DNA of 64,000 bases from NCBI GenBank assembly GCA_963714275.1, contig CAVQNT010000002.1, forward strand, positions 704,001 to 768,000. The letters run 5' to 3'. Below are positions 8,716 through 25,629 of this stretch, piece after piece; the stretch's first letter is position 1; each line of letters starts with the position of its first letter. Both the position numbers and the translations under genes were made by a program. The notes under the pieces were generated by a model that worked only from the letters and a program-made list of their open reading frames with translations, searched no databases and was not told the DNA's origin. The DNA comes from Candidatus Bathyarchaeota archaeon. Lineage in GTDB: Archaea; Thermoproteota; Bathyarchaeia; Bathyarchaeales; DTEX01.

Positions 8716-9747
8716 CTAAAGATTCAATTCCGCAATCTCGGCAGCTATGGCTTCACCCATCTGAACCGTTGTGAGCTTGCCTCCGAAATCTGGAACCGTT
8801 AATCCCTTGCTTAGGGCTTTAACCATGCCTTCTTCGACTGCGTCAGCTGCCTTTTTACACGTAGGATCGTTGTGTTTTTCGCTTAGCCATTCAAGCATCA
8901 TCTTCGAAGCCAAAACCATCGAACACGGGTTAGCTGTGTGCTTGCCAACTCTCGTAGGCGCAGCCCCGTGGACGGGTTCAAAAAGGGCAAAGTTGTCGCC
9001 AATATTCGCGCCCGGAGCCATACCGAGTCCGCCAACCAGCTGGGCTGCCTCATCCGAGAGGATGTCGCCGAAAAGGTTCGTCGTAACAATCACGTCGTAC
9101 TCTTGGGGTTCCTTGATCAGCCTCATCGAAGCCGCGTCAACGTACTGTTCGTTGAAGATTACGTTCGGATACTTCTTTGCGACTTCCCTGCAAACCTCGG
9201 CAAAGAGCCCGCACGTCTTCCTCAAAACGTTGGCTTTGTGGACAGCTGTAACTTTTCTTTTGCCGTTTCTTTGCACCACTATTTCGAAGGCTTTTTTGGC
9301 TATGCGTTCGCTTCCTTTTCGGGTGATGACTCTTAATGCGATGGCAGCATCGTCAATCATGAACTCGAAGCCCTTGTAGAGTCCCTCCGTGTTTTCCCTC
9401 ACAATAACGAGGTCGATGTCACCTCTATGGCACGGCACCCTAGGATACGCCTTTATTGGACGAATGTTGGCGTAAAGGTCAAACATCATCCTCAACTTAA
9501 CAACAACGTCAGCAGCAGTTTCGCCCACTGGTCCCTTAAGGCATACATGAGAGTCACGAATCGCCTCAACAGTTTCTTCGGGAAGCGCAACTCCCCTTTT
9601 TTCCAGACAAGCGTCACCTGCCTCCAATTTAGTGAAGCCAAGCTTAAGACCAAACTTTTCCTGAACCGCATCCATGACGCAAAGCGTGGTTTCAGTTAAT
9701 TCTGGACCGATTCCGTCTCCCGGAATTAGGGCGACTTTGTATTTCAC
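8716..9747 (-). CDS. leuB: 3-isopropylmalate dehydrogenase (isocitrate/isopropylmalate family)
   Basis: IPGDGIGPE, RENTEGLY, HKANV, NLFGDILSD, FEPVHGAAP. Confidence 0.9.
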   Translation of the reverse strand: MKYKVALIPGDGIGPELTETTLCVMDAVQEKFGLKLGFTKLEAGDACLEKRGVALPEETVEAIRDSHVCLKGPVGETAADVVVKLRMMFDLYANIRPIKAYPRVPCHRGDIDLVIVRENTEGLYKGFEFMIDDAAIALRVITRKGSERIAKKAFEIVVQRNGKRKVTAVHKANVLRKTCGLFAEVCREVAKKYPNVIFNEQYVDAASMRLIKEPQEYDVIVTTNLFGDILSDEAAQLVGGLGMAPGANIGDNFALFEPVHGAAPTRVGKHTANPCSMVLASKMMLEWLSEKHNDPTCKKAADAVEEGMVKALSKGLTVPDFGGKLTTVQMGEAIAAEIAELNL

Positions 9748-10244
9748 GGGTTTTTTCCTCCTTTCTTTTTCAGATGAGCGATTAAACCTCCGTCCTGCAG
9801 AATCTTGAGTATGAATTCGGGAAGCTTCGTTGCCTTGATGGTGCGGTTCCGTGTTTCGTTCACGATTCGTCCTTCTTCAAGGCTGACTGCGAGCACATCG
9901 CCTTCCTCGACCTCTTTCGAGACGTTTGGGCTTTCAAGAACAGGCAACCCGATGTTGATTGCGTTCCTGAAAAATATTCGGGCAAAGGACTCGGCAAGTA
10001 TGCACTTTACGCCAGCATACTTTAGAGCCAACGGAGCCTGCTCACGGCTTGAGCCACACCCGAAGTTTTTTCTAGCAACAATGATGACTCCGTTTTTGGC
10101 TTTTTCCGAAAAGTTCGGGTTCAACCCTTCCATCGCGTGCTTCGCCATCTCCGTTGGGTCCAGCAAAGTCAAGTATTTTCCGGGAATAATGGCGTCGGTG
10201 TTTACGTCGTCTCCGAAAACCGTGGCTTTACCTGAAACCTTCAA
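9744..10244 (-). CDS. leuD: 3-isopropylmalate dehydratase small subunit
   Basis: TTG start at 10244 after GGAGG; [27 protein letters not shown]. Confidence 0.9.
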   Translation of the reverse strand: MKVSGKATVFGDDVNTDAIIPGKYLTLLDPTEMAKHAMEGLNPNFSEKAKNGVIIVARKNFGCGSSREQAPLALKYAGVKCILAESFARIFFRNAINIGLPVLESPNVSKEVEEGDVLAVSLEEGRIVNETRNRTIKATKLPEFILKILQDGGLIAHLKKKGGKNP

Positions 10245-10248
10245 ATTG

Positions 10249-11512
10249 CTAAGCCTCCTGAAAATATGCTGGGTCAACAATCTTGCCAGCAACAGCTGAA
10301 GCAGCAACGGTAGCTGGAGAAGCCAAGTATATTTGGGCTTCAGGGCTGCCCATTCTTCCTACAAAGTTTCTGTTAGAGGTGCTAACGCAGACTTCGCCAG
10401 CAGTAAGTAATCCCATGTGACCGCCGAAACAGGCTCCACACGTAGGATTGCACACGAAACCCCCAGCCTTCACAAAAACCTCGAACAAACCACGCTGCAA
10501 AGCCTGCATGTAAACCTCCTGCGAAGCTGGAGTAACGATCAGCCTCACGTCTCTAGCGACCTTTCTTCCATCAAGGAACCTTGCTGCTAGTTCAAGGTCT
10601 TCCAGCCGACCGTTTGTGCATGAGCCTATGAAAGTCTTGGTCAATTTTGGTTCCTTCGACGTCTTTGACTGGCTTCACGTTGTCAACCGAGTGCGGGCAT
10701 GCAACCTGAGATGTAAGCTTGTCCAAGTTCACCTCAACCGTTTTTTCGTATGTCGCATCTAGGTCGCTTGTTAAAACCTTGAATGGCTTATCGGTGACGG
10801 TTTTAACGTATTCCAGAGTAACCTTGTCTGGGTTGATTAAGCCCGTTTTGGCGCCCATCTCAACCGTCATGTTGCAGATAGTCATTCGTCCGCTCATACC
10901 GATTCCGCTAATGGCTGAGCCCGTAAACTCTACAGCCCTGTAGTTTGCGCCGTCAGCTCCGACCTCGCCAATTACGTGTAATATGAGGTCTTTGGGAGCC
11001 ACGGACTTCTGGAATTTTCCGTCCACCACGATTCTGATGGACGATGGAACCCTAAGCCAGATCGTTCCAGTGGCGAAGACTCCAGCCATCTCGGTTGAGC
11101 CTATACCCGTAGCGAAGGAGCCTACGCAACCATAGGTGCACGTGTGAGAGTCTGCGCCTACTACGAGTTCGCCTGGGAGAACGTGACCTTTCTCAACCAT
11201 GACTTGGTGGCAAACGCCTCCGTGACCTACGTCATAAAACAACGGAATGCTCTGTTCTTTGGCGAAGGTTCTCATGATTTTGTGAAGCTCAGCTGACTTC
11301 ACGGAGTCAGCGGGAACATGATGGTCCAGAATCATGACTACGCGTTTCTTGTCCCAAACTTTCGGAGTTCCGATTTCCTTGAACGCTTGGATGGCGAGTG
11401 GACCAGTGATTTCGTTAATCATTGCCTCGTCGACTTTGGCGTCTACGATGTCGCCTAGTTTAACCTCATCCTTTCCCGAAGCCGACGCGAGAATTTTCTC
11501 CGCAATGTTCAT
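10249..11512 (-). CDS. leuC: 3-isopropylmalate dehydratase large subunit, frameshift near 10635
   Basis: [13 protein letters not shown], then FIGSCTNGR and [11 protein letters not shown] in the shifted frame. Confidence 0.9.
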
Positions 11513-11541: not shown

Positions 11542-12532
11542 TTACTTTTCGATGCCTGAGGTCTTCCTAATGGTCTTGCCAACCTGTTCAAGCGGATGCT
11601 TCTCAATCTCGTCCATGAGGGCTTTGAGCTTCTTTTCTCCAGACTTGTGATCCTCAACCCATTCTTTGGCGAAACTGCCGTCTTGGACAGCTTTTGCGGC
11701 TTTTTTCATGTTTTCTTTAACGTGGCTGTCAACAACTTTAGGACCTACTATCAGTCCGCCGTATTTTGCTGTGTCTGACACCGCTCGAAGCATGCCGATG
11801 ATTCCTTTCTGGTATATGAGGTCCATTATGAGTTTGGCTTCGTTGCAGGCTTCGAAGTAGGCTAGCTCAGCTGGATAGCCGTTTTCAACGAGCACCTCGA
11901 ACCCGTTCTTTATGAGTCTCAATTAAGCCGCCAACCAGAACCGTCTGTTCCCCAATGAGGTCGCTTTCAGTCTCATCCTTGAAAGTGGTCTCGATAACTC
12001 CAGCCCTTGTGCTGCCAAGCGCCTTCGCAGCAGCCAAAGCGGTCTCCATGGCTTTGCCTGAAGGATTCTGGTAAACAGCAACCAATGCAGGCACCCCGAA
12101 GCCGTTTTGATATGTTTCCCTTAGCCTGATGCCTGGACTTTTTGGAGCAACCATTATCACGTCCACATTTTTTGGTGGGACAATCTGTTTGAAGCGGATG
12201 TTGAAGCCGTGGGCGAAGTCCAAGGTCTTGCCTTCAGACAGGTAGGGAGTGATTGATTGCTTGTAAATGTCGGGTTGAACCATGTCGGGCACCAAAACGA
12301 AGATAACGTCAGCCTTTTTCGCTGCTTCTGAGATTTGGTAGACTTTGAATCCGTCTTTTTTGGCTCTTTCCCAAGATTCTCCTCCTGACCTGAGGCCTAC
12401 GATGACATTTAAGCCTGAGTCTCTCATGTTCTGAGCTTGCGCGTGTCCTTGGCTGCCGTATCCGATTACGGCTATTGTTTTGTCTTTCAACGGATTTAGA
12501 GATGCGTCTTTTTCGAAATATACCTTAACCAT
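11542..12532 (-). CDS. ilvC: Ketol-acid reductoisomerase, frameshift near 11920
   Basis: [53 protein letters not shown]. Confidence 0.95.
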
Positions 12533-14746: not shown

Positions 14747-14821
14747 TTTAGATCCTTCCTAGTTATCTTTGGTTCAAAGGATCTTTCGGTTTGCATGTCC
14801 TCATCGAGAACTGCACAATAG

Positions 14822-14880
14822 ACATTGGGAATGTTTAAAAATCTTTTTGGGCTATGTGCTGGAGAAAACATTGGGAATCT
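14822..14880. promoter_or_regulatory. Two palindromic operator-like sites (ACATTgggAATGT 14822-14834; ACATTgggAATCT 14868-14880) flanking a minus-strand BRE/TATA (AAAAAGATTTTTAAA, ~14834-14848) upstream of ilvB
   Basis: 11-bp direct repeat ACATTGGGAAT, itself a 5-3-5 inverted repeat. A similar site lies at 16665-16677. Confidence 0.55.
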
Positions 14881-14884
14881 CGTT

Positions 14885-14929
14885 TTAGAAGCGGAGGAAA
14901 AGGTCCCTCCGTACCCGAATATCCCTCAC
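14885..14929 (-). other. Putative leader ORF (GTG start, MRDIRVRRDLFLRF) upstream of the ilvB operon
   Basis: GGAGG 8 nt upstream of the GTG, BRE/TATA (AAAAAGCTTATAAG) at 14979-14992, and an internal 8-bp hairpin. Confidence 0.35.
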
Positions 14930-15036
14930 TTTTTTGTCCTCCAGAGGAAACGAAACCGAGACTACTATCAACAGGATACTTATAAGCTTTTTGAACTCGT
15001 TGTTCTGTGTAAGCATTTTCAATGTTATGCTAAATA

Positions 15037-16579
15037 TTATTTGCCTGATGTAGTGTTGTTTTCTGTTTTGTTGTGGTTGCTCATGAGGACGTTCATGCCG
15101 TTCAGCATGGCTTCGACGCTTGCCATAACGATGTCTCCGTGGGCTCCCATCGCCGTGGCTATTCTGTCGCCTTTCCTCAGCCTAACAATGACTTCGACCA
15201 AGGCGTTTGTGCCCCCCGTTATGGCGTTAACGTGATATTCATCAAGCCTGATAGGTTCAACGGCGGAAACAGCCTTCCTTATGGCGCTCATCGCAGCGTC
15301 AACTGGGCCAATGCCCGTAGCAGCCTCAGTTAAAAGCTTACCGTTAAGGTTCAGCCTAACCGAAGCCGTGGGTGTAACGCGGTCTCCGGTCACGACTGTT
15401 AGTTCCTCGAGCTTTATCGCCCGTGTACTCGGTAACTCCATGATGGACTCAGCGACCGCCTGAAGGTCAGCGTCAGTGATCCGTTTGCCCTTGTCGCCCA
15501 ACGTTTTTACGCGTTGAAAAATCTCGTTCAGCTGCACATCGGTTGGATTGAGACCCATTTCTTTCAGAACCGCTCCGATGCCCCGTGACCCAGCGAGTTT
15601 TCCGACTGCCAGCCTTCTTGTGCGTCCAACAATCTCCGGCGGAATCGGCTCGTATGTCAAGGGATCAGCAAGTATGGCGTGGGTGTGGATGCCAGCTTCG
15701 TGAACGAAGGCGTTTTCGCCGACGATTGCCTTGTTCGGTTGAACCGGGATTCCGGTGAGGCGCGAAAATAGCAGTGAAGTGTCATACAGCCGTTCAGTCT
15801 TCATGGACATTTCGACGTTGTAGAGCAGCTTCAATGAAACAACGACTTCTTCTAAAGCCGCGTTTCCAGCTCTTTCACCCAGCCCGTTTACTGTGACGTG
15901 AACCTCTTCTGCTCCTGCTTTTAGGGCAGCTATCGAGTTTGCGACGGCCATGCCGAAGTCGTCGTGGCAGTGCACACCTAGGTGAGCTTCTGGGAAAGCC
16001 TGCTTAAGTTCTGAATAGAAATCGTTCGTCTTTTCCGGCGTCAATACGCCTACAGTGTCGCACGGAGTCACCCTGTCTATGCCTGCTGATGTGCCTGCTT
16101 CTATCATGTTTTTGAGGAAAGCTGTGTCTGCTCGGGTTGCGTCTTCAAGTCCTAGCTCGACAAGCAGTCCACGCGTTTTGGCGTATTTGACTGTTTCTCG
16201 GGTGAGCTTAAGCACGTCTTCCCTTGTCTTTTTGAGTTTATGTTGGATGTGCAGGTCTGAGGCTGGGATGACGAGGAAAACTGAGTTCGAGCCGCTTTCA
16301 ACGACTGCGTCTACGTCTTTTTTGACTCCTCTGGCGAAGCTGCATATTTCAGCTTTGAGTCCTTCTTTGACTATGCTTTTGATGGCTTCCATTTCGCCTT
16401 CGGATGCAGCAGCGAATCCCGCCTCGATGACATCGACTCCTAAATGGTCAAGCTGCTTGGCTAAGGCTGTTTTCTTTTCAGAAGTTAAAGAAGCTCCGGG
16501 GGTTTGTTCGCCGTCTCTCAGGGTTGTGTCGAAAATTCGGATTTTACTTGGGAAGCGGTTGGATAAAGCAATACCCCAT
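15037..16579 (-). CDS. cimA: (R)-citramalate synthase / isopropylmalate synthase paralog; start ATG out of frame by one G in a G-run
   Basis: The frame extends upstream of 16392 with [16 protein letters not shown]; HCHDDFGMA, HEAGIH. As a second LeuA-family gene beside the ilv genes it fits CimA. Confidence 0.7.
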
Positions 16580-16664
16580 TTTCAGTAACACCGAAACAAC
16601 AACGCATATGCAAGGTGTATAAAAGCCTTTTGGTGCCCAAGTCCAGACAGCGAAACTCCGAAAC

Positions 16665-16687
16665 ACATTGTAAATGATTTTAAAGTA
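16665..16687 (+). promoter_or_regulatory. Operator-like ACATTgtaAATGA abutting a TATA-like TTTTAAAGTA upstream of ilvD (divergent cimA/ilvD region)
   Basis: 9 of 10 palindrome positions match the ilvB site. Confidence 0.45.
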
Positions 16688-16713
16688 TAGGGAAAAGGTT
16701 TAAGAGCGTACGG

Positions 16714-18396
16714 TTGAACAAGTTTTTGGTTTTAGGTTTGAGAAGCGATACTGTTAAGCGTGGATTGGAGAGGGCTCCTCACCGGGCAATTTGGAAGTGC
16801 CTAGGGCTAACCGAAGACGATTTCAGTAAACCCTTCATTGCAGTAGCTAACAGCTTCACCGAAACGGTTCCGGGACACATGCACCTAAACAGGCTTGTTG
16901 AATCTGTTAAGGCTGGAGTTCAAGCTGCTGGAGGAGTGCCTTTCGAGTTCAATACGATTGCCATATGCGATGGCTTAGCCATGGGCCACGAAGGAATGAA
17001 CTATTCTCTTCCCTCAAGGGAACTGATAGCTGACTCCGTGGAGGTCATGGTTCAGGCACACAGGTTCGACGGGCTTGTATTGTTAACCAACTGTGACAAG
17101 ATCACGCCTGGAATGATGATGGCTGCAGCGCGTTTAGATATTCCATCAATCGTTGTGACGGGAGGCCCAATGCTTTCAGGCTTCTATAAGGGTAGAAAAG
17201 TCGATGTTACTGCGATTTTTGAAGCTGTGGGAGAAGCCTCAGCAGGAAAAATAACAGAAGAAGACCTCAAAGAAATCGAAGACAGGGCATTCCCCGGATG
17301 CGGCTCCTGCAATGGCATGTACACAGCGAATACCATGGCATGCGTAGCTGAATCCATCGGAATGTCTCTGCCAGGTTGCGCCACAGCCTTGGCTGTCTCA
17401 TCCGAGAAGGCAAGAATAGCTAAAAAAAGTGGAGAAAGGGTCGTCGGATTAGTTAAAGAGGAGACAAAACCTTCCGCCATCCTGACGCGGAAAGCGTTTG
17501 AGAATGCCATAACGGTGGACATGGCGCTTGGAGGTTCAACCAATACTGTTCTACACTTGAAAGCCATAGCCAACGAAGCTGGTATAGGCTTGCCATTGGA
17601 AGTCTTCGACGAGAAAGCGAGAAGGACGCCTCACCTGTGTGACATGAGGCCAGGAGGACCACATGACCTCGCAGAACTCGACGCGGCAGGAGGAATCCTA
17701 GCTGTCATGAGGCTACTCAGCGACAGGCTTCATTTGAACGCCATCACCGTGACTGGTGCTACGGTCAAAGAAAACATCAAGGACGCGCCCTTATACGACA
17801 CTGACGTAATTCGACCTTTGGAAAATCCTATTCATAAAGAGGGCGGGATAGGTGTACTAAGTGGAAACTTGGCTCCTAATGGCGCTGTTGTGAAGGTTAC
17901 CGCCGTGCCTTCTAAAATGCTTGTTTACAAGGGTCCAGCAAGAGTTTTTGACTCCGAAGAGGAGACGATGAAGGCGATACTTAAGAAACAAATCAAAGCT
18001 GGAGACGTTGTCGTCATACGTTACGAAGGACCAAAAGGCGGACCAGGAATGAGAGAGATGCTTTCCCCAACAGCAGCAATAGCTGGCATGGGTTTAATCG
18101 AGTCCGTGGCTTTTGTAACTGATGGCAGATACTCAGGCGCAACGAGAGGACTCTGCATAGGTCACGTTTCTCCTGAAGCAGCTGCAAGCGGTCCCATAGC
18201 AGCTTTGCAGAATGGCGACATAGTCCAAATCGATGTTCCGAAAAGGACCTTAAATGTCGTGTTAAATGACGAAGAGTTGAAGAACCGTTTGGCTAAGTGT
18301 AAGCCTAAGCCACCAAAGATTCAGAAGGGCTATCTCAGAAGGTACTGGGCTCTTGTGCAGTCAGCAAACGACGGCGCAACGTTCAGGACTCCATGA
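16714..18396 (+). CDS. ilvD: Dihydroxy-acid dehydratase
   Basis: [54 protein letters not shown]. Confidence 0.97.
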
Positions 18397-18451
18397 CTTA
18401 AGCTTTTAAGCCCTAAACATGAAGATAACGAGAAGTTGAGGCGAAGCATCC

Positions 18452-18923
18452 TTGAAATACGATGTTACTCTGGCTTTGGCTGATAAGCCTGGCCATCTGC
18501 TGAAGGCTTTGGAGCCAATTGCTAAAAACGGCGGAAACATAATCTCGATAATACACGAACGGGAGAAGCCAGCTGAAGGCTTCGTTCCAGTCAGCCTTGT
18601 TCTGGATTTTCCGTCAAAATGGAACTTGAGAAAGACAATCGACGACCTGAAAGCCCTAGACGTGGCAATAATCAAGTCTGAGGAAATCATCGAAACAACC
18701 AGCGTAACGTTGATCCTCATAGGTAAAATGGACCTAAAGAAGCTCATCGAAACCAAGTTTGAAAACACGAGAATCACGGGATTTGAGGTTTCTGCTCCAA
18801 GCTCCAAAGAAGCCTGCGTAAAAATGGACTTGGAAGTTCCCACAAACCTCGTAGAAACGGTTCTCGGTGAACTGAAAAAGAATCTCAAAGGAAGAAAACG
18901 CGATTCTAATATCCTCAGTCTAG
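18452..18923 (+). CDS. ACT-domain protein (allosteric partner of homoserine dehydrogenase), probable frameshift near 18878
   Basis: LADKPGHLLKALEPIAKNGGNIISIIH ACT signature, directly upstream of hom. The shifted frame ends ...KEENAILISSV* at 18923. Confidence 0.8.
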
Positions 18924-18941
18924 GAAAGGTGCACAATAAAA

Positions 18942-19943
18942 ATGAAAGCAATTATTGTCGGGTTCGGCTTTATGGGAAGAGACCTCTTAAGGGTCCTTCA
19001 CGAAAAATCGGATGTTGTTGCGAAGTTTGACGGAGAGTTTAAGGTTGTCGGCGTTTCGAACAGCAAGGGATACATTTATGAGAAGAAAGGCTTGGACCTT
19101 GAGAAGCTGCTGAAAACCGAAGCCCTCTTAGACTACGGCAAAAGCTTCAGTGCCGGAGGCTCTTCGCTTGAGCTCATCGAAAAAAGTGGCGCAGACTTAA
19201 TGGTTGAGGCTACCTTGACTCGCATAAAGGACGGGGAACCCGGCGTAACCTTCATCAAAGAAGCTTTGGGTAAGGGAATCCATGTAGTCACCCCAAACAA
19301 AGGGCCATTAGTTGTTGCCTTTAAGGAGCTTACATCTCTGGCTGAGAAGAGCGGCTGCGAGTTCCTCTACGAGGCTACGGTTGCTGGAGCAGTTCCCGTG
19401 TTCTCTCTTGTTCGCGAGTGTTTGCAGGGCGACAGAGTGCAGCGGATTTCGGGCATACTTAATGGAACAACGAACTACATTCTCTCGAAGATGTATTTTG
19501 AGGAAACCAGCTTCGAACTTGCACTGAAAGAGGCGCAAGAAAGAAGAATTTGCGAGCGAGACTCATCCTATGACGTGGACGGTATCGACGCCACCTGTAA
19601 GGTGGTAATATTGGCTAACGCGTTGATGAAAAGAAACGTCATGTTCGGAGACGTTGAACGGCTAGGTATACGTGACATCACCCAAGAGGCTGTTAGCTTG
19701 GCGAAGAAGGCGAACTACGCTATTAAACTGGTTGGCACAATTGATGGAAACCTTCAAGTTGCGCCGAAACTGGTTCCGATTAACCACCCGCTTTGTGTCC
19801 ATGGCACTCTTAACGCTGTTCATTTAGAAACGGATTTGGCTAAGGAGATAACATTGATAGGTTACGGAGCGGGAAAAGAATCGATCTCAGCAGTCTTTAA
19901 TGATGTGCTTACGATTCTGAAAAAGGCAAAATCAGCCACTTAA
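18942..19943 (+). CDS. hom: Homoserine dehydrogenase
   Basis: VGFGFMG, HVVTPNKGP, YEATVAGAVP, GILNGTTNYIL, DVDGID. Confidence 0.95.
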   Translation: MKAIIVGFGFMGRDLLRVLHEKSDVVAKFDGEFKVVGVSNSKGYIYEKKGLDLEKLLKTEALLDYGKSFSAGGSSLELIEKSGADLMVEATLTRIKDGEPGVTFIKEALGKGIHVVTPNKGPLVVAFKELTSLAEKSGCEFLYEATVAGAVPVFSLVRECLQGDRVQRISGILNGTTNYILSKMYFEETSFELALKEAQERRICERDSSYDVDGIDATCKVVILANALMKRNVMFGDVERLGIRDITQEAVSLAKKANYAIKLVGTIDGNLQVAPKLVPINHPLCVHGTLNAVHLETDLAKEITLIGYGAGKESISAVFNDVLTILKKAKSAT

Positions 19944-19949
19944 TACAGA

Positions 19950-21223
19950 CTAACAAATAACCATAATACTAGGCTTTTGATTTTCAGTCGCTTCTGAAAC
20001 CATTAACTGTTCAACAGCTTCAAGTGTGGCTTCAACCTCGACTGGCACAGGAAACTTTTTGAGCACAATCTCTGGGTCTTTAAGCCCGTGACCCGTAAGG
20101 ACGCAGACAACTTTTTCGTCTTCGTCTATGAGACTCTTTTTTGCGAGCTTGATGAGCCCTGCGACTGAAGCAGCGCTTGCAGGTTCAACGAACAATCCTT
20201 CAAGCTGAGCCAGCAGCCTTTGAGCATCGAGGATTTCGCTGTCGGAAACGGTTTCAACAAGCCCATTAGACTCCTTGATGGCGTTGACGGCTTTTTTCCA
20301 GTTCACCGGCGACCCTATTCTAATGGCCGTCGCAATAGTTTCAGGCTTCTTGACAAACTTGACCTCCATCAAGCCCTGTTTTACGGAGTGTGCTATAGGT
20401 GCAGCTCCTTCAGCCTGTATACCGACCATCTGTGGAAGCTTTTCGGTTAAACCAAGTTCATAGAGTCTCTTTAAAACCCTTCCAATAAGCGCTGATGTTC
20501 CCGGCGTTTCCAATTGGTACAATTAACTTGTCTGGGACTTGACGATCTAGTTGGTCTCGTATCTCGAAGGCTGCCGTTTTTTGGCCTTCTAAACGGAACG
20601 GATTCAAAGAATTCAGCATATAGACTGGTCGTTTGAGGCAAAGCTCCTGCACAATTTTCAACGCTTGGTCGAAGTTTCCCCTAATCTGGACGACCTTGGC
20701 TCCGTGAACTATGGCTTGGGTTAATTTGCCAAAAGCTACCTTTCCTGAAGGAATAAGCACCATACATTCAAGCCCAGCTTTCAGCTGCGTAGGCAGCCAG
20801 AGACGCTGAGGTGTTACCCGTCGAGGCACACATGACCTTTTTCATCTTTAACTCCAAAGCCTTGGAAACACCGACAGTCATCCCTCGGTCCTTGAATGAG
20901 CCAGTTGGATTTTCGCCCTCGTTTTTGGCGTAAAGGTTTTTTATGCCGATTTTTTCCGAAAGTTTATGGCACTGGTTCAGGCTTGTACCGCCTTCTCCCA
21001 GCGTAACTATTTTCTTTTCGTCTTCAACTGGCAACAGTTCAGCGTATTTCCAAACTGATAAACCGCGGTTCTCCCATTCTGCGTCAAGGTTAGAAGGCAG
21101 TTTGGAAAAGTCATACTTTACTGCTAGCAAACCACCGCATTTGTAGCAGGTGTAGATAACCATGTGTGGGTTGTATTCAGCTCCGCAGTCGATGCATTCA
21201 AGGTAGTAAGAATCCGCGTCCAT
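19950..21223 (-). CDS. thrC: Threonine synthase (canonical), frameshifts near 20780 and 20465
   Basis: N-terminal CxxC/Cxx[11 protein letters not shown] with PLP Lys, [33 protein letters not shown] across three ORFs. Confidence 0.9.
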
Positions 21224-21365
21224 GAAGGCTTAGCTCCGTAAACAAATCTCGCCTAAACGGTTCGTAAATATCGCCAGTTCCCTTAAAACATTATTGCCCC
21301 AACTAAGGGGTTCTGAAAGATTTCCGACAACAAATATTATAGTCACTTCGCCGTATCTGCAAAGT

Positions 21366-21875
21366 ATGCCTTTGACGCCGTTCCATCTCGGTCCGGGACT
21401 CTTCATTCCGCTGCTGTTATTGAACATCGTGGATTTGCCTACGTTTCTGATTGCCAGCGTTATATTGGACATCGAACCAATTCTAATTTTGTCTCTGTCC
21501 CTTCAATACCCAGTTCACGGCTTCCTCCATTCCTTCATGGGAGGCTCAATTGTTGCCTTAGTTCTCACCGTCATCATGTTTAGATTCAGAAAACTCTTTT
21601 CACCAGTGACGTCGTTCTTCAAACTTGAACAGAAATGGTCTATTACTAGCATCTCAGTTGCTTCTTTTTTAGGCATCTACCACCACCTGTTCTTGGACGC
21701 ACAGATACATCAGGACATGCAGCCATTTTTCCCGTTAACAATAAATCCGTTTTTGAACCAAAGTTCACTCGCTGGGCTAATACCAGTAATCTTTTGCGTG
21801 TGGTGCTTCTTCGGGGCAATGATGATGTATTCTATCAGGCTTGCCACTTTCGCAAGAAGGTCCAAAAAACTGTAA
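21366..21875 (+). CDS. Membrane protein, metal-dependent hydrolase-like (DUF4184/YdjM-like)
   Basis: MPLTPFH, ILDIEP, HGFLHS, HHLFLD, PFFPL motifs; hydrophobic. Confidence 0.7.
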   Translation: MPLTPFHLGPGLFIPLLLLNIVDLPTFLIASVILDIEPILILSLSLQYPVHGFLHSFMGGSIVALVLTVIMFRFRKLFSPVTSFFKLEQKWSITSISVASFLGIYHHLFLDAQIHQDMQPFFPLTINPFLNQSSLAGLIPVIFCVWCFFGAMMMYSIRLATFARRSKKL

Positions 21876-22009
21876 AATAATTTAGTCCAACATCATCTTA
21901 AATGAAGATAACAATTTAAGGCTGTTAACTGTTCATGCGTGCAAGTTAAAAAACTTAGGCATTTATGCATGAAAAGGCGAAATTGATAGACTGATGCGGG
22001 GTACAACGG

Positions 22010-23404
22010 TTGAGCGTCCTCCAATGTGTCAAATGTGGAAACCTTGCTGAGCCTTATCCGCCTAAAAACAGGTGCCCAAAGTGTGGTGAACTATACGAGT
22101 ACAAAGTTGACCTCAGCAAGCTCAAAACCGCGGATTCCACAGAGAGCTTCACCTTCTGGCGCTATCGGAACTTTCTTCCTGAAGTAAAAAACCAAGCAAC
22201 GATGCATGAAGGCGGAACCCCCCTTTACAGAGCTGAACGCTTAGCTCGACAGATGGGCTTGACCCAACTTTACTTGAAGGACGAGACCCGCAACCCAACC
22301 AACTCTTTTCGGGACAGGGGCGCAGCGCTCATGGTTTCAAACATTCTCGATCTCAACCGCACGGTGGCTGCCTGTGCAAGCAACGGAAACATGGGCGCCT
22401 CTTTGGCTGCTTACTGCGCAAAATATGGTGTAACCTGTCACCTCGTGATTCCGAAGCTCGTTGACATGGGAAAACTGGCTCAAATGCTGGTGTACGACGC
22501 AGTGATTGAGGAGCATGGCGAAACCGTAGATGAGTCCATTAAACGAGCAGAAAAACTGGCTCAAGAAACAGGCTGGTACCAAGTTACGCCGGAGCTGAAC
22601 CCCCTCGTCATAGAGGCACAAAAGACAATAGCGTTCGAGGTAGCTGAACAATATGGAGTTCCCGACTGGTTCATCGTTTCCATGGGAAGCGGCGGAACCC
22701 TCTATTCTGTGTGGAAAGGATTCACGGAGCTTTACGAACTTGGTAAGGTTGACAGGATTCCTCGAATCGTAGGCGTCCAAGCAGAAGGGTGCTCACCCAT
22801 AGTCGACACGTTCTACGAAATAAAGAAAGAAAGCCTGAAACCGACTACGCACGCAATCGGAATCCTCTTCGCTGAACCCGTTCACAAAGACCTTGCAGTA
22901 AAATCTATAAGAGAATCAAAGGGTCTAGCTGTTTCAATATCGGACCAAGAAATTTTTTTAGCTGAACAACAAATAGTGAGGCTGGAAGGTCTGTTCGCTG
23001 AACCAGCGAGTTCAGGTACAATTGCAGCGTTAAACAAGCTCAGAGCTGAAGAAGCCATAGGTAAGGACGAGTCTGTCGTCTGCTTGATTACTGGAAGCGG
23101 ACTGAAAGCTACGGATGTTCTACAGGCGCTTTCAAAGAAGCGGAAGTCCGCGATAGTCGGCGCTGAGTTCAGCACAAAAGAGAAACTGTTGCGTACTTTA
23201 GACAAGCAGGATAGGTACGGCTACGAGTTGTGGAAGGAACTTGGTAAAACGATGACTCGGTCTGCTATATATCAACATTTGAACGAGATGCGTAACCGGG
23301 GTCTCCTTTCCTCTCATGTGAGAAGGGGGAAAAGGTACTTCGCAATTACCGAAAGAGGAAAAAGGATACTGAAAGCCATTGACGACGTAAAAACCTTACT
23401 TTGA
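22010..23404 (+). CDS. Threonine-synthase-like protein lacking the PLP lysine, fused to a C-terminal PadR-like wHTH
   Basis: ThrC fold motifs throughout but NPTNSFRDRG (R101, codon CGG at 22310). C-terminus LDKQDRYGYELWKEL...IYQHLNEMRNRGLL...RYFAITERGK. Confidence 0.85.
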   Translation: MSVLQCVKCGNLAEPYPPKNRCPKCGELYEYKVDLSKLKTADSTESFTFWRYRNFLPEVKNQATMHEGGTPLYRAERLARQMGLTQLYLKDETRNPTNSFRDRGAALMVSNILDLNRTVAACASNGNMGASLAAYCAKYGVTCHLVIPKLVDMGKLAQMLVYDAVIEEHGETVDESIKRAEKLAQETGWYQVTPELNPLVIEAQKTIAFEVAEQYGVPDWFIVSMGSGGTLYSVWKGFTELYELGKVDRIPRIVGVQAEGCSPIVDTFYEIKKESLKPTTHAIGILFAEPVHKDLAVKSIRESKGLAVSISDQEIFLAEQQIVRLEGLFAEPASSGTIAALNKLRAEEAIGKDESVVCLITGSGLKATDVLQALSKKRKSAIVGAEFSTKEKLLRTLDKQDRYGYELWKELGKTMTRSAIYQHLNEMRNRGLLSSHVRRGKRYFAITERGKRILKAIDDVKTLL

Positions 23405-23434: not shown

Positions 23435-24707
23435 TTATTTTAAGTTGTAAAGGCTTCGAGGGTTACGGTTCAACAGGTCAACAGCTGAATTCTTTGGCGA
23501 ACTCCATGGTAATGTACCCATCATACACCATTTCAGAGAGAACTGTTGCCACCTGCAGCCTCACCATTCTGGACTTAGCGTAGCTCCATTCAACAACGTA
23601 GGCGTCGCTGAAGAAACCGTTCGACTTGTTTCTAGGCAACATTTGAAGCCTTTCTTGTAGGAATTGTTTGATGAACGTCGGATAGAAGGTGTACCACCAG
23701 TATCCCGAAACATGGACATTCGGGTAATTTTTTGCAACCACAGCCAGTTGATGCGAAAGCAGCGGAGTCGTCGTGAAAACATCAAACTTCAACCCACTAA
23801 ACTCGCTGAACAACGGACAAAGAGACGAAACCGTGAAGCTTTCAAACCCCGTAATAGCGTAATCAGAAGGAGCAGCCCCTACAACAGGTCTTTTAGCTCC
23901 GAGCATGACCTGAAAAACGAAACCCGACTTCTCTGCAAGGCTGAGAGCCAACCGAAGAGCAAATGAAGAAAGTGTCTGTTTTTCTTTTGGAGTTAACTTG
24001 CTGTCTCCTAGAAGGTTCTTGAAAGCCTTTTCAGACTCAAGTCTAGTTGGGTTTACAAAAGAGTCTTCAGGTTGAAAACTTACGGTTGCAGTGACGCAAC
24101 TTGCAAACATTTTAAAAATACGATTAAGAGAGTCCGAGAAATCGTCAAGAGACTTTATGGAATTGCTGGTTGCCTTTTCTAAACTTTCCATGCTGGTTTT
24201 GTTCAGATTGCTGATTAACGGATCAAGCCTAAGAGCACCCGCGAAAAATTCAGGGTCAAACTGTGGCTCCGCTTCATCGTATCTAAGGGTTAAAAAGGTT
24301 TTCTCGATCTTAGCTTTCTCGCCTAAGACCCATTTGTACCTTTCAGCCTGTTTTGATCCTTCATAAATTGCATCTAGGAGCCCATTTAAGTTTTTTGTGT
24401 TGATTTCGTCATGTTCGAAGCTGTAAGCTCCTTCAGCATTCTAATGAAGTACCAGTATGTTGAAGTGTTTTTAATCAGTTGCAGAAACGGCACAGCGTTC
24501 TTTATGGCGTCTTCAACAGGCAGCTTGGGAGAAATGAGCTCAAGCGGCATACCCGCTGATCTGAGCTCCGTGGCAATGTAATGGTAGAAGAGAATGTCCC
24601 GAGAGGTTCGGGCGTGAGGGTGGGAAGCATCTATATGGGAGTGAATGTCAATCATCGGAATGGTGTCAACAAACTTGCTCAGTTCTGAGAAAAGCCTTTT
24701 TTTGCAT
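23435..24707 (-). CDS. uxaC: Uronate (glucuronate) isomerase family, amidohydrolase fold, several frameshifts
   Basis: MIDIHSHI, ILFYHYIATEL, YPNVHVSGYWWY, FFSDAYVVEWSYAK spread over fragments 24386-24655 and 23478-24191. Confidence 0.7.
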
Positions 24708-24870
24708 GACTGTGATCTCCTTGCTCTTTATACAACATTCTCTTTCCTTATAGAGTGATAAATCTGTATGCCTCTGGTTTTATGAATACCGATTTCGACT
24801 TGTTGAGCTTCCGTAAATCTTTTATTTTGAAATAGAAAAATAGTAAAGTTATAACTAAACTATTTGAGGT

Positions 24871-25629
24871 ATGGTCATGCTTCAGAAAAAAACTCTGTCA
24901 CCGCTCACTTTAGCAGTCACAGCCATATTCACAACTTTCGTGTGCGTGGCAACCATGGTTTTTTCGATTTATGTTCCATCAACCGAGGGCTTTTTCAACA
25001 TAGGCGAATCAATGGTCTTTCTCTCAGCCCTCCTGTTCGGTCCATATGTTGGAGCTTTCGCAGGAGGCGTAGGATCAATGCTGGCAGACATACTGTTAGG
25101 CTATTCGTACTATGCGCCTGCAACCCTCATCATTAAGGCTTGTGAAGGATACGTTGTTGGCCTCATAAAGAGAAATAATCCCCGATTTCTATCAATGGCT
25201 CACTGGAAACTGCTCACGTTGTTTCTCGGATTAATCGCAGGCGGGGTGCTCTCGACTGTTGGCATCATCTATTACAGTGGAACAATAGAGTTAACTTTAG
25301 GAGCAACAATTTATTCACTTTTTATACCACAGGAACTCTGGATAGTCCTCGGAGCCCTAGTAACCCTATTTATAGCCGTGATTGGGTTTGCTGCAGAACC
25401 GGAGTTCGGCTGGACCGTTTTCTCCGTTGTAAGCGGCGGACTTGTCATGGTGCTGGGATATTTCCTCTACCAGATGTTCTTTATCGGCTGGCTTTTCAAT
25501 ATTCCAGTGGTCGCAATAGCAGAGGTTCCCTTCAACATTGGGCAAATGATCATAGGGGCTATGGTGGCTCTTCCTTCCGCAAGGGTCGTCTGGCGTGCAT
25601 TTCCTTCTTTGAAACAAACATCAGCATAA
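24871..25629 (+). CDS. ECF transporter S component
   Basis: YVPSTEGFFNIGE, GGVGSMLADILLGYSYYAPATLIIK, PFNIGQ. Confidence 0.85.
   Translation: MVMLQKKTLSPLTLAVTAIFTTFVCVATMVFSIYVPSTEGFFNIGESMVFLSALLFGPYVGAFAGGVGSMLADILLGYSYYAPATLIIKACEGYVVGLIKRNNPRFLSMAHWKLLTLFLGLIAGGVLSTVGIIYYSGTIELTLGATIYSLFIPQELWIVLGALVTLFIAVIGFAAEPEFGWTVFSVVSGGLVMVLGYFLYQMFFIGWLFNIPVVAIAEVPFNIGQMIIGAMVALPSARVVWRAFPSLKQTSA

Follow-up and report, generated by a model that had tools for sequence, protein, structure and literature searches.

A threonine synthase-like protein fused to a PadR-like winged helix-turn-helix is a candidate regulator of vitamin B6 supply in Bathyarchaeia

The window analysed here is a 64,000-nucleotide stretch from the genome of a Candidatus Bathyarchaeota archaeon (GenBank assembly GCA_963714275.1, contig CAVQNT010000002.1, positions 704,001 to 768,000). 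At 22010-23404 it carries a gene whose product joins a threonine synthase (ThrC)-like body, which has the fold of fold-type II pyridoxal phosphate (PLP) enzymes, to a C-terminal PadR-like winged helix-turn-helix (wHTH) domain. Further along the same strand lies a gene for a membrane protein resembling the S-components of energy-coupling factor (ECF) transporters. We consider that the fused protein has probably ceased to be an enzyme and may regulate vitamin B6 supply. The fused gene, its parts and its candidate target are as follows.

22010..23404, + strand: ThrC-like/PadR-wHTH fusion gene, candidate B6-responsive regulator (open reading frame (ORF), Pfam, NCBIfam, AlphaFold2, Foldseek)
22025..22084, + strand: N-terminal four-cysteine zinc ribbon (C6, C9, C22, C25; from the translation)
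22199..23095, + strand: PALP domain (fold-type II PLP enzyme), residues 64-362 (Pfam, E = 3.8e-74)
22310..22312, + strand: CGG codon for Arg101, at the position of the PLP Schiff-base lysine (alignment to ThrC proteins)
23117..23164, + strand: flexible linker, residues 370-385 (predicted local distance difference test score, pLDDT, <50)
23186..23374, + strand: PadR-like wHTH, residues 393-455 (Pfam PF03551, 36.1 bits against a cut-off of 27)
24841..24862, no strand assigned: candidate operator, TAGTAAAGTTATAACTAAACTA, a perfect palindrome of 22 bp with 8 bp between its end and the S-component ATG at 24871
24871..25629, + strand: ECF S-component-like membrane protein (PF07155), PdxU2/HmpT-like (Pfam, 106 bits)

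The fused ORF begins with TTG and encodes 464 residues with no internal stops. A preliminary description of the locus, made from the sequence alone, had followed the ThrC fold from end to end, and the translation does contain the zinc ribbon, which is common to the neighbouring canonical thrC product, together with the EGGTPL, ASNGN, EAQKT, EPASS and ITGSGLK motifs. The PadR-like motifs named there (YGYELWKEL, IYQHL and RYFAITERG) are likewise present, and PF03551 scored over its cut-off. The AlphaFold2 model (mean pLDDT 92, with 94 family sequences as input) returned the same architecture, in which residues 370-385 form a disordered linker between the ThrC body and a segment (389-463) made up of the wHTH and a terminal helix that reaches residue 463. 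The best Foldseek matches of the model were threonine synthases (2D1F, 6NMX, 2ZSJ and 1V7C; template modelling score relative to the target 0.83-0.89), and identity to solved ThrC proteins was 35-37%. PDB sequence matches of the wHTH were to PadR-family proteins and were weak; Pfam gave no GntR match in the fusion protein, whose wHTH is C-terminal and PadR-like.

Fold-type II PLP enzymes need a lysine to form the internal aldimine and for catalysis. The residue aligned with this lysine in the solved ThrC proteins 2ZSJ and 2D1F, and in the neighbouring thrC product, is Arg101 of the fused protein, within NPTNSFRDRG. All of the 120 best database homologues (61-94% identity) have the PALP plus PadR architecture and all 120 carry Arg at position 101, which makes the replacement neither chance nor a sequencing error; despite the many indels in this assembly, sequencing error was ruled out by these homologues together with the CGG codon. 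The preliminary description was therefore right that the lysine is genuinely replaced in an intact ORF.

The loss of lysine extends beyond the closest relatives. We aligned the query and the best 150 representatives of 50%-identity clusters (151 rows, MAFFT) and recognised two classes, fused proteins (n = 77; 400-560 residues, wHTH aligned) and unfused ThrC-like proteins (n = 63; 340-450 residues). Eleven rows fell into neither class, comprising fragments, P0250, P0264 and four proteins of 610-619 residues that bear the lysine and a different extension. The Schiff-base lysine was found in 63/63 unfused representatives but in only 2/77 fused ones, where the position was occupied by Leu (20), Arg (17), Ile (15), Val (6), Thr (5), Met (4), Phe (3) or, once each, Ser, Tyr, Ala, Asn and His. 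At the other columns with at least 85% conservation among the unfused proteins, the fused ones kept the same majority residue (40-100% identical), and no residue conserved only in the fused set was found in the 151-row alignment. Loss of the lysine tracks fusion to the wHTH and is a trait of the family. The second difference that had been pointed out, in the phosphate-binding loop (SMGSGGTL against PIGNAGNI), is not family-defining, since the nearest unfused ThrC-like proteins vary there.

A FastTree phylogeny of the PALP part alone (146 rows) placed the unfused proteins in one group (68 rows, support 97) and the fused proteins in two, an Arg-rich group that contains the query (25 rows, support 99) and a group carrying hydrophobic residues at the lysine position (52 rows, support 94).

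Gene neighbours were clustered for 41 fused-gene loci chosen for diversity from 19 GTDB families of the phylum. The sole widely recurrent neighbour was a PF07155 S-component, a membrane protein of ~250 residues, which was adjacent to the fused gene in 25/41 loci and 13/19 families, either following it directly in the same orientation or lying upstream of it in divergent orientation. In one family, the S-component was followed by a double ABC ATPase and then a further membrane gene. Linkage to gatD-gatE, located upstream of the fused gene in two families, was taken as local synteny. An extended set of 54 loci includes seven fetched for PdxS adjacency; at one of the 54 (L065) the S-component was recovered by tblastn only as a broken copy.

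Compared with solved proteins, the window S-component had a single significant match, chain S of 4HZU (E = 5e-10). A profile of 25 S-components again found 4HZU_S as the sole significant solved match (E = 2.3e-24; next E = 0.53) and, among solved proteins up to E = 10, no riboflavin, folate, thiamine or biotin S-component; the window protein was also far under the cut-offs of the NCBIfam riboflavin and folate S-component models. The protein in 4HZU_S comes from Lactobacillus brevis and is known as HmpT/PdxU2, for which a passage of PMC4860826 gives pyridoxamine as the substrate, based on mass spectrometry and simulation. PdxU and PdxU2/HmpT are placed in PF07155 in an extract of PMC9997740, which also describes B6 transporters as poorly known, with three characterised in prokaryotes, these two among them. 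The archaeal S-components retain four of the six HmpT pocket residues, at the positions matching E41, Y120, N140 and Q143. These S-components differ from PdxU2/HmpT by a ~70-residue insert between the two matched halves, and in the window no ECF A/T genes adjoin the S-component gene. We predict from these comparisons that 24871-25629 is both the regulated target and a B6-vitamer uptake protein.

A second connection with vitamin B6 was provided by its biosynthetic genes. PdxS, PdxT and PdxJ had no match in the genome containing the window (10 contigs, 91% complete), and the PdxK/ThiD kinase family gave weak matches there (≤24 bits). PdxS was found in three of 45 other sampled genomes from five families (f1-f5) of the same order, and B6 auxotrophy may be widespread in this order. 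Across the phylum, 401 genomes (396 after removal of five ambiguous ones) were searched for PdxS and with a fusion-specific profile made from the C-terminal 130 residues. PdxS was lacking in 103/125 genomes with the fused gene versus 112/271 without it; the genomes are related and thus not independent samples, and we use the association as description only. Of the 22 genomes bearing both genes, seven, from three GTDB families, had pdxS adjacent to the fused gene, and Pfam confirmed the gene assignments. In six of the seven (two families) a pdxS-pdxT pair was divergent from the fused gene, and in the seventh (third family) pdxS lay downstream on the same strand. At locus L059 the arrangement is:

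L059:4810-6129, - strand: divergent PALP-PadR protein, 439 residues, Ile at the lysine position, directly upstream of pdxS
L059:3664-4716, - strand: pdxS, adjoining the PALP-PadR gene on the same strand

Candidate operators were present in the promoter regions of these genes. The palindrome at 24841-24862 probably overlaps the TATA region of the S-component gene. A 22-bp palindrome, TAGTnnAGTTATAACTnnACTA, is common to S-component upstream regions in families f1, f2, f3 and f5. With up to three mismatches allowed it matched 14 times in the 783 kb of fetched loci; 13 of these matches lay 14-136 bp upstream of an S-component start, and the palindrome was found upstream of the S-component in 11/11 f1, f2, f3 and f5 loci having one. 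At the same threshold, the window contained a single match, the perfect one at 24841-24862 (chance expectation 0.05). In a sixth family, AAAGTnnnnACTTT precedes the S-component gene by 16-43 bp in 5/6 loci (four exact, one with one mismatch), and all five exact matches in the data set were in S-component promoters (four in the sixth family and one at L018 of f3). One-mismatch copies of AAAGTnnnnACTTT were rejected as a specific motif (44 matches, 10 near).

In the clades with hydrophobic residues at the lysine position, the candidate operator is CCTATATATAGG. Its nine exact matches in the 783 kb all lay 13-94 bp upstream of a fused gene; pdxST stood on the other side of the palindrome in five cases and the S-component in three, and the remaining copy had neither partner. 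This 12-mer occurred exactly once per genome in four of the five whole genomes searched. Since one operator type is found at pdxST in some loci and at the S-component in others, the usual reasoning of comparative genomics assigns the S-component to a B6 regulon. These sites coincide in part with AT-rich, TATA-like sequence near start codons, which would make promoter occlusion, and hence repression, the simplest mode of action.

A genome-wide regulon for the 22-bp site was rejected. In the whole genome containing the window there were five sites at up to three mismatches, versus three for a reversed control, and only 24841-24862 was perfect. The four secondary sites adjoin integrase genes, separate convergent genes or fall in ORF-poor stretches, and none of them pointed to a B6 gene. 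Two operator-like palindromes (C10:21153-21174 and C2:559490-559511, with one and three mismatches) adjoin phage-type integrase genes; these could be chance matches, or a related wHTH protein carried by integrated elements could bind there.

As a homodimer, the fused protein was modelled with a score of 0.70, against 0.00 for the best control, with at least 81% of contacts agreeing between runs and pLDDT of at least 80. In the calibration of this tool, its mark was reached by 20/30 solved one-chain pairs and 1/23 solved single chains. The two chains meet symmetrically within the PALP body (residues 46-47, 65-77, 91-98, 134-140, 157-163, 323-329 and 363-370). Solved ThrC dimers exist, and the pass may thus reflect ThrC likeness. 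The modelled dimer fits an arrangement in which two tethered wHTH domains would be offered to a palindrome.

Sequence comparison lends good support to a one-component regulator built from a dead enzyme, and on the best reading the gene is mis-annotated as a threonine synthase and would encode a functional analogue of bacterial PdxR. The fuller proposal, that the fused protein combines a PLP-fold sensor with a wHTH and controls B6 uptake or pdxST genes, has in our estimate a probability of roughly 0.62. In this proposal, the PALP domain is the ligand-sensing and dimerising body: a ThrC-type, PLP-binding fold without the Schiff-base lysine, its pocket otherwise kept, would act as a dimeric sensor, and a flexible linker would tie it to the PadR-like wHTH, which would bind the palindrome over the S-component promoter. 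PLP or another phosphorylated B6 vitamer, held non-covalently, would be the most likely signal. As the internal aldimine cannot form, the vitamer is proposed to bind reversibly, and the loss of lysine would have made a covalent cofactor site into a reversible PLP gauge. Occupancy of the sensor would alter how the wHTH pair engages its operator, the most likely logic being that ample cofactor leads to repression of B6 uptake; elsewhere in the family, pdxST biosynthesis would replace uptake as the target. The architecture, the family-wide loss of lysine, the recurrent neighbours, the palindromes with their locations and the lack of PLP synthase genes are computed results, whereas it is inferred that the protein binds DNA, which ligand it takes, in which direction it regulates and what the transporter carries.

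Several observations weigh against this proposal. No copy of the clade operator (≤3 mismatches) was found upstream of 22010, the start of the regulator's own gene, and autoregulation through such a copy was accordingly rejected. Candidate operators differ by clade, yet the wHTH helix 'AVYQHL' hardly varies. The fused gene and PdxS occur together in 22 genomes and neither occurs in 112, exceptions to an association already limited by relatedness. Neither an S-component nor pdxS lies beside the fused gene in 20/54 loci, a set whose counts are biased by the seven loci picked for PdxS adjacency, those from the 41 loci being unbiased. Two pocket residues of HmpT are altered in the archaeal S-components (H84 to K and Q87 to E), and PF07155 contains riboflavin transporters too. 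The columns expected to bind the ThrC substrate are also kept in the fused proteins, leaving room for a ligand resembling that substrate or for a PLP-amino-acid adduct. Finally, the two Lys-bearing fused representatives (P0122 and P0127) nest within the Arg-rich group of the tree, and the lysine is stable in their lineages, being present in 15/15 sequences read from a Bathyarchaeota cluster of 62 members (P0122, P0272-P0285) and in 4/4 of a Lokiarchaeota cluster (P0127, P0286-P0288). Since they are nested among Arg-bearing proteins, these sublineages may be reversions, or regulators with covalent PLP as in MocR.

It is unlikely, in our judgement, that the protein regulates the S-component gene in response to a signal other than B6, with another cofactor precursor, a pyrimidine or pyridine compound or an amino acid as signal and substrate, and with the pdxST adjacency secondary. 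The breadth of PF07155, which takes in riboflavin and other S-components, would allow this, as would the 2/6 HmpT pocket residues that differ and the recurrence of an AIR-synthase/ThiL-like gene beside the S-component. HmpT itself, as a passage of PMC4860826 recounts, was first thought to be a hydroxymethylpyrimidine carrier. Yet the same exact palindrome stands at pdxST and S-component loci, the sensor has a PLP-binding fold, the fused gene occurs mostly in genomes without PdxS, and the S-component profile matches HmpT/PdxU2 only.

The preliminary description had instead assigned the dead ThrC to the sensing of threonine, O-phosphohomoserine or a related intermediate, and to control of the adjacent thrC, ACT-hom and ilv/leu genes. 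Its idea of a one-component regulator derived from a dead ThrC is supported; the threonine and branched-chain amino acid regulon is not, and we regard it as improbable. A thrC, hom and ilv/leu cluster does lie beside the gene in the window, canonical thrC occurs within ~8 kb in 5/5 loci of the window's own GTDB family (near-divergent to the fused gene in two of them), and the ThrC-type pocket columns are conserved. This linkage, however, was confined to those five of the 41 loci and to one of the 19 families, against 25/41 and 13/19 for the S-component; the conserved partners are B6 genes, and in other lineages the fused gene adjoins pdxST. The clade operator (≤3 mismatches) was absent from the thr/ilv/leu intergenic regions that had been put forward for binding assays, together with that preceding the fused gene (14750-15030, 16580-16713, 18397-18451, 21224-21365 and 21876-22009), and the 12-bp operator core was absent from 14750-22009 at up to two mismatches.

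We think it very improbable that the protein does not bind DNA and serves as a PLP storage or chaperone protein, or as a partner of the transporter, with the wHTH making protein contacts. DNA binding is read here from sequence, and PadR scores were below the cut-off in some clades (19-26 bits in 5/10 proteins scanned); PF03551 gave 19-62 bits in nine further family members, four of them over the cut-off, and the tenth protein in the scan, P0250, is without the wHTH domain. Against this, unique, clade-conserved palindromes lie exactly at promoters next to the gene, and within the C-terminal region of the family the wHTH is the best-conserved part. To the last alternative, that the protein has remained enzymatic (as a threonine synthase or some other PLP enzyme with a non-lysine mechanism) and the wHTH is accessory or moonlighting, we give very little credence, for although the threonine synthase models score high, the pocket is conserved, two sublineages carry Lys and the archaeal regulator RbkR is, in the account excerpted from PMC5397151, still catalytic, fold-type II enzymes need the lysine, the same genome has a canonical Lys-bearing thrC, and the residues that fill the lysine position across the fused clade are chemically so unrelated that no catalytic role fits them.

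Two further genes flank the system in the window.

19950..21223, - strand: canonical thrC, Lys-bearing, in three frames (translation); given as context only
23478..24338, - strand: UxaC-like (amidohydrolase-fold) gene, broken, between the regulator and the S-component gene (Pfam UxaC, E = 2.7e-7)

The gene that the preliminary description took as the true thrC does have the lysine, but is split over three frames in the assembly. Both breaks lie at short homopolymer runs, which makes assembly indels likely, rather than decay. Many genes in the 10-contig assembly have single-base frameshifts, including thrC, leuC, ilvC, leuA, the UxaC-like and AIR-synthase-like genes, a second PALP gene and an integrase; their positions are:

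19950-21223, 10249-11512, 11885-12532, 15037-16392 and 23478-24338, all - strand: frameshifted genes in the window
C2:447638-448638, C5:74555-75578 and C10 (L068:3194-4332): frameshifted genes elsewhere in the genome

The product of the UxaC-like gene is 27% identical over 281 residues to a 435-residue protein encoded divergently from the fused gene at another locus (L040:847-2154, - strand). As it is divergent from the S-component gene, the operator region is common to both, and its membership in the system is uncertain. A YdjM-like membrane protein of 193 residues (21294-21875, + strand), located between thrC and the regulator, is not recurrent in other loci. An ACT-domain ORF (18452-19030, + strand) overlaps the start of homoserine dehydrogenase (18942-19943, + strand) by ~90 bp, and an assembly indel may have interrupted what is a single ACT-hom gene.

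In four GTDB families, an AIR-synthase-related protein of the PurM superfamily is repeatedly encoded next to the S-component gene or divergently from the fused gene:

L024:11155-12180, L025:10977-12044, L026:11001-12080, L029:6830-7855 and L042:4169-5194: AIR-synthase-like genes
L039:7446-8495 and 9604-10605, and C2:447638-448638 in the genome of the window: further AIR-synthase-like genes

The copy in the window's own genome lies ~1.4 kb from another PF07155 gene (C2:450009). Among NCBIfam models (HypE, ThiL and SelD), the neighbour was under all cut-offs. Given a genome without a clear PdxK, we speculate that this protein is perhaps the missing B6 salvage kinase.

The annotation of the family also bears on its interpretation. 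The fused protein scored 191 bits with the TIGR00260 thrC model, over the cut-off of 167.1, and 402.3 bits with NCBIfam NF004170 (PRK05638, 'threonine synthase'), slightly under the cut-off of 421. The NF004170 alignment covers residues 4-457 of the fusion and positions 2-441 of the 442 in the profile, and because it extends through the wHTH, a curated model named for threonine synthase already spans this domain. Its top genomic matches (~700 bits) are fused, Arg-bearing proteins adjoining an ECF operon (L013 and L050), and the name is probably wrong for the model's own seed proteins. The expectation that automated pipelines would call the fusion a threonine synthase is thus borne out by this model, and the source names agree. 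The 120 best homologues come from sources named Bathyarchaeota or Bathyarchaeia, and further named members belong to Asgardarchaeia, Promethearchaeota and Thermococcus chitonophagus (WP_068578498.1), so that the family extends over Thermoproteota (Bathyarchaeia among others), Asgard archaea and one Thermococcus at least. All of these carry the annotation threonine synthase or PLP-dependent enzyme; one member (P0067) is recorded in a database as 'transcriptional regulator'. Many proteins that go by the name 'threonine synthase', for example the 120 best homologues and those in 125/396 phylum genomes, are probably not enzymes, and the same holds for NF004170 itself.

The closest parallel in function is with PdxR and the other MocR factors, which are also one-component regulators with a PLP-enzyme fold as sensor. 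PdxR regulons comprise pdxST, pdxK and pdxU in the excerpt of PMC5320631 relied on here, which also gives MocR factors as absent from Archaea. The kinds of target are those deduced for the fused protein, and the divergent arrangement with pdxST is found in both. PdxR/MocR proteins, however, join an N-terminal GntR wHTH to a fold-type I aminotransferase-like domain, whereas the fusion has a fold-type II domain and a C-terminal PadR-like wHTH; neither domain is homologous and the fused family is archaeal, hence the fused protein is not a MocR member. MocR proteins keep the Schiff-base lysine, which most fusion members have lost. With ThrC, the fused protein shares the whole fold, the zinc ribbon, the predicted dimer interface and all conserved columns but one; it differs by Arg101 in place of lysine, by the added wHTH and by having B6 rather than threonine gene partners.

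Classical PadR proteins have ~110-180 residues and an N-terminal wHTH. The fusion shares with them a wHTH over the Pfam cut-off, a C-terminal helix after it and palindromic candidate operators, but here the wHTH is a C-terminal appendage of a 370-residue sensor that would supply the dimer interface. RbkR, as outlined in a part of PMC5397151, is an archaeal regulator with an enzyme domain and a wHTH that acts on vitamin synthesis and uptake genes through operators varying by lineage, and in all of these respects the fused family resembles it. RbkR differs in being an active kinase of another fold, concerned with another vitamin, whose enzyme domain belongs to the same pathway; the enzyme domain of the fusion derives from an unrelated pathway (threonine), would have been taken for its cofactor pocket and is apparently inactive. 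In a literature search of incomplete coverage, no ThrC/PALP-PadR regulator and no archaeal B6 regulator was found described. We would give even odds that Archaea have in this family their counterpart of PdxR, and that it is the first family of B6-responsive transcription factors to be proposed for them, having arisen independently from an inactivated ThrC and a PadR domain.

These results bear on how Archaea regulate vitamin B6 supply, in that they bring a candidate regulator together with candidate operators and a candidate transporter in one package, within a family that includes a homologue from a cultured organism, Thermococcus chitonophagus. If the proposal is true, PLP-enzyme folds would have been taken up twice, independently, as sensors of transcription factors. 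The family would then mark an archaeal B6 uptake protein not assigned before, a PdxU2-like S-component, and the AIR-synthase-like neighbour may be the missing salvage kinase. Through the mis-annotation of these proteins, threonine synthesis and B6 auxotrophy can both be misjudged when the metabolism of Bathyarchaeia and related archaea is reconstructed.

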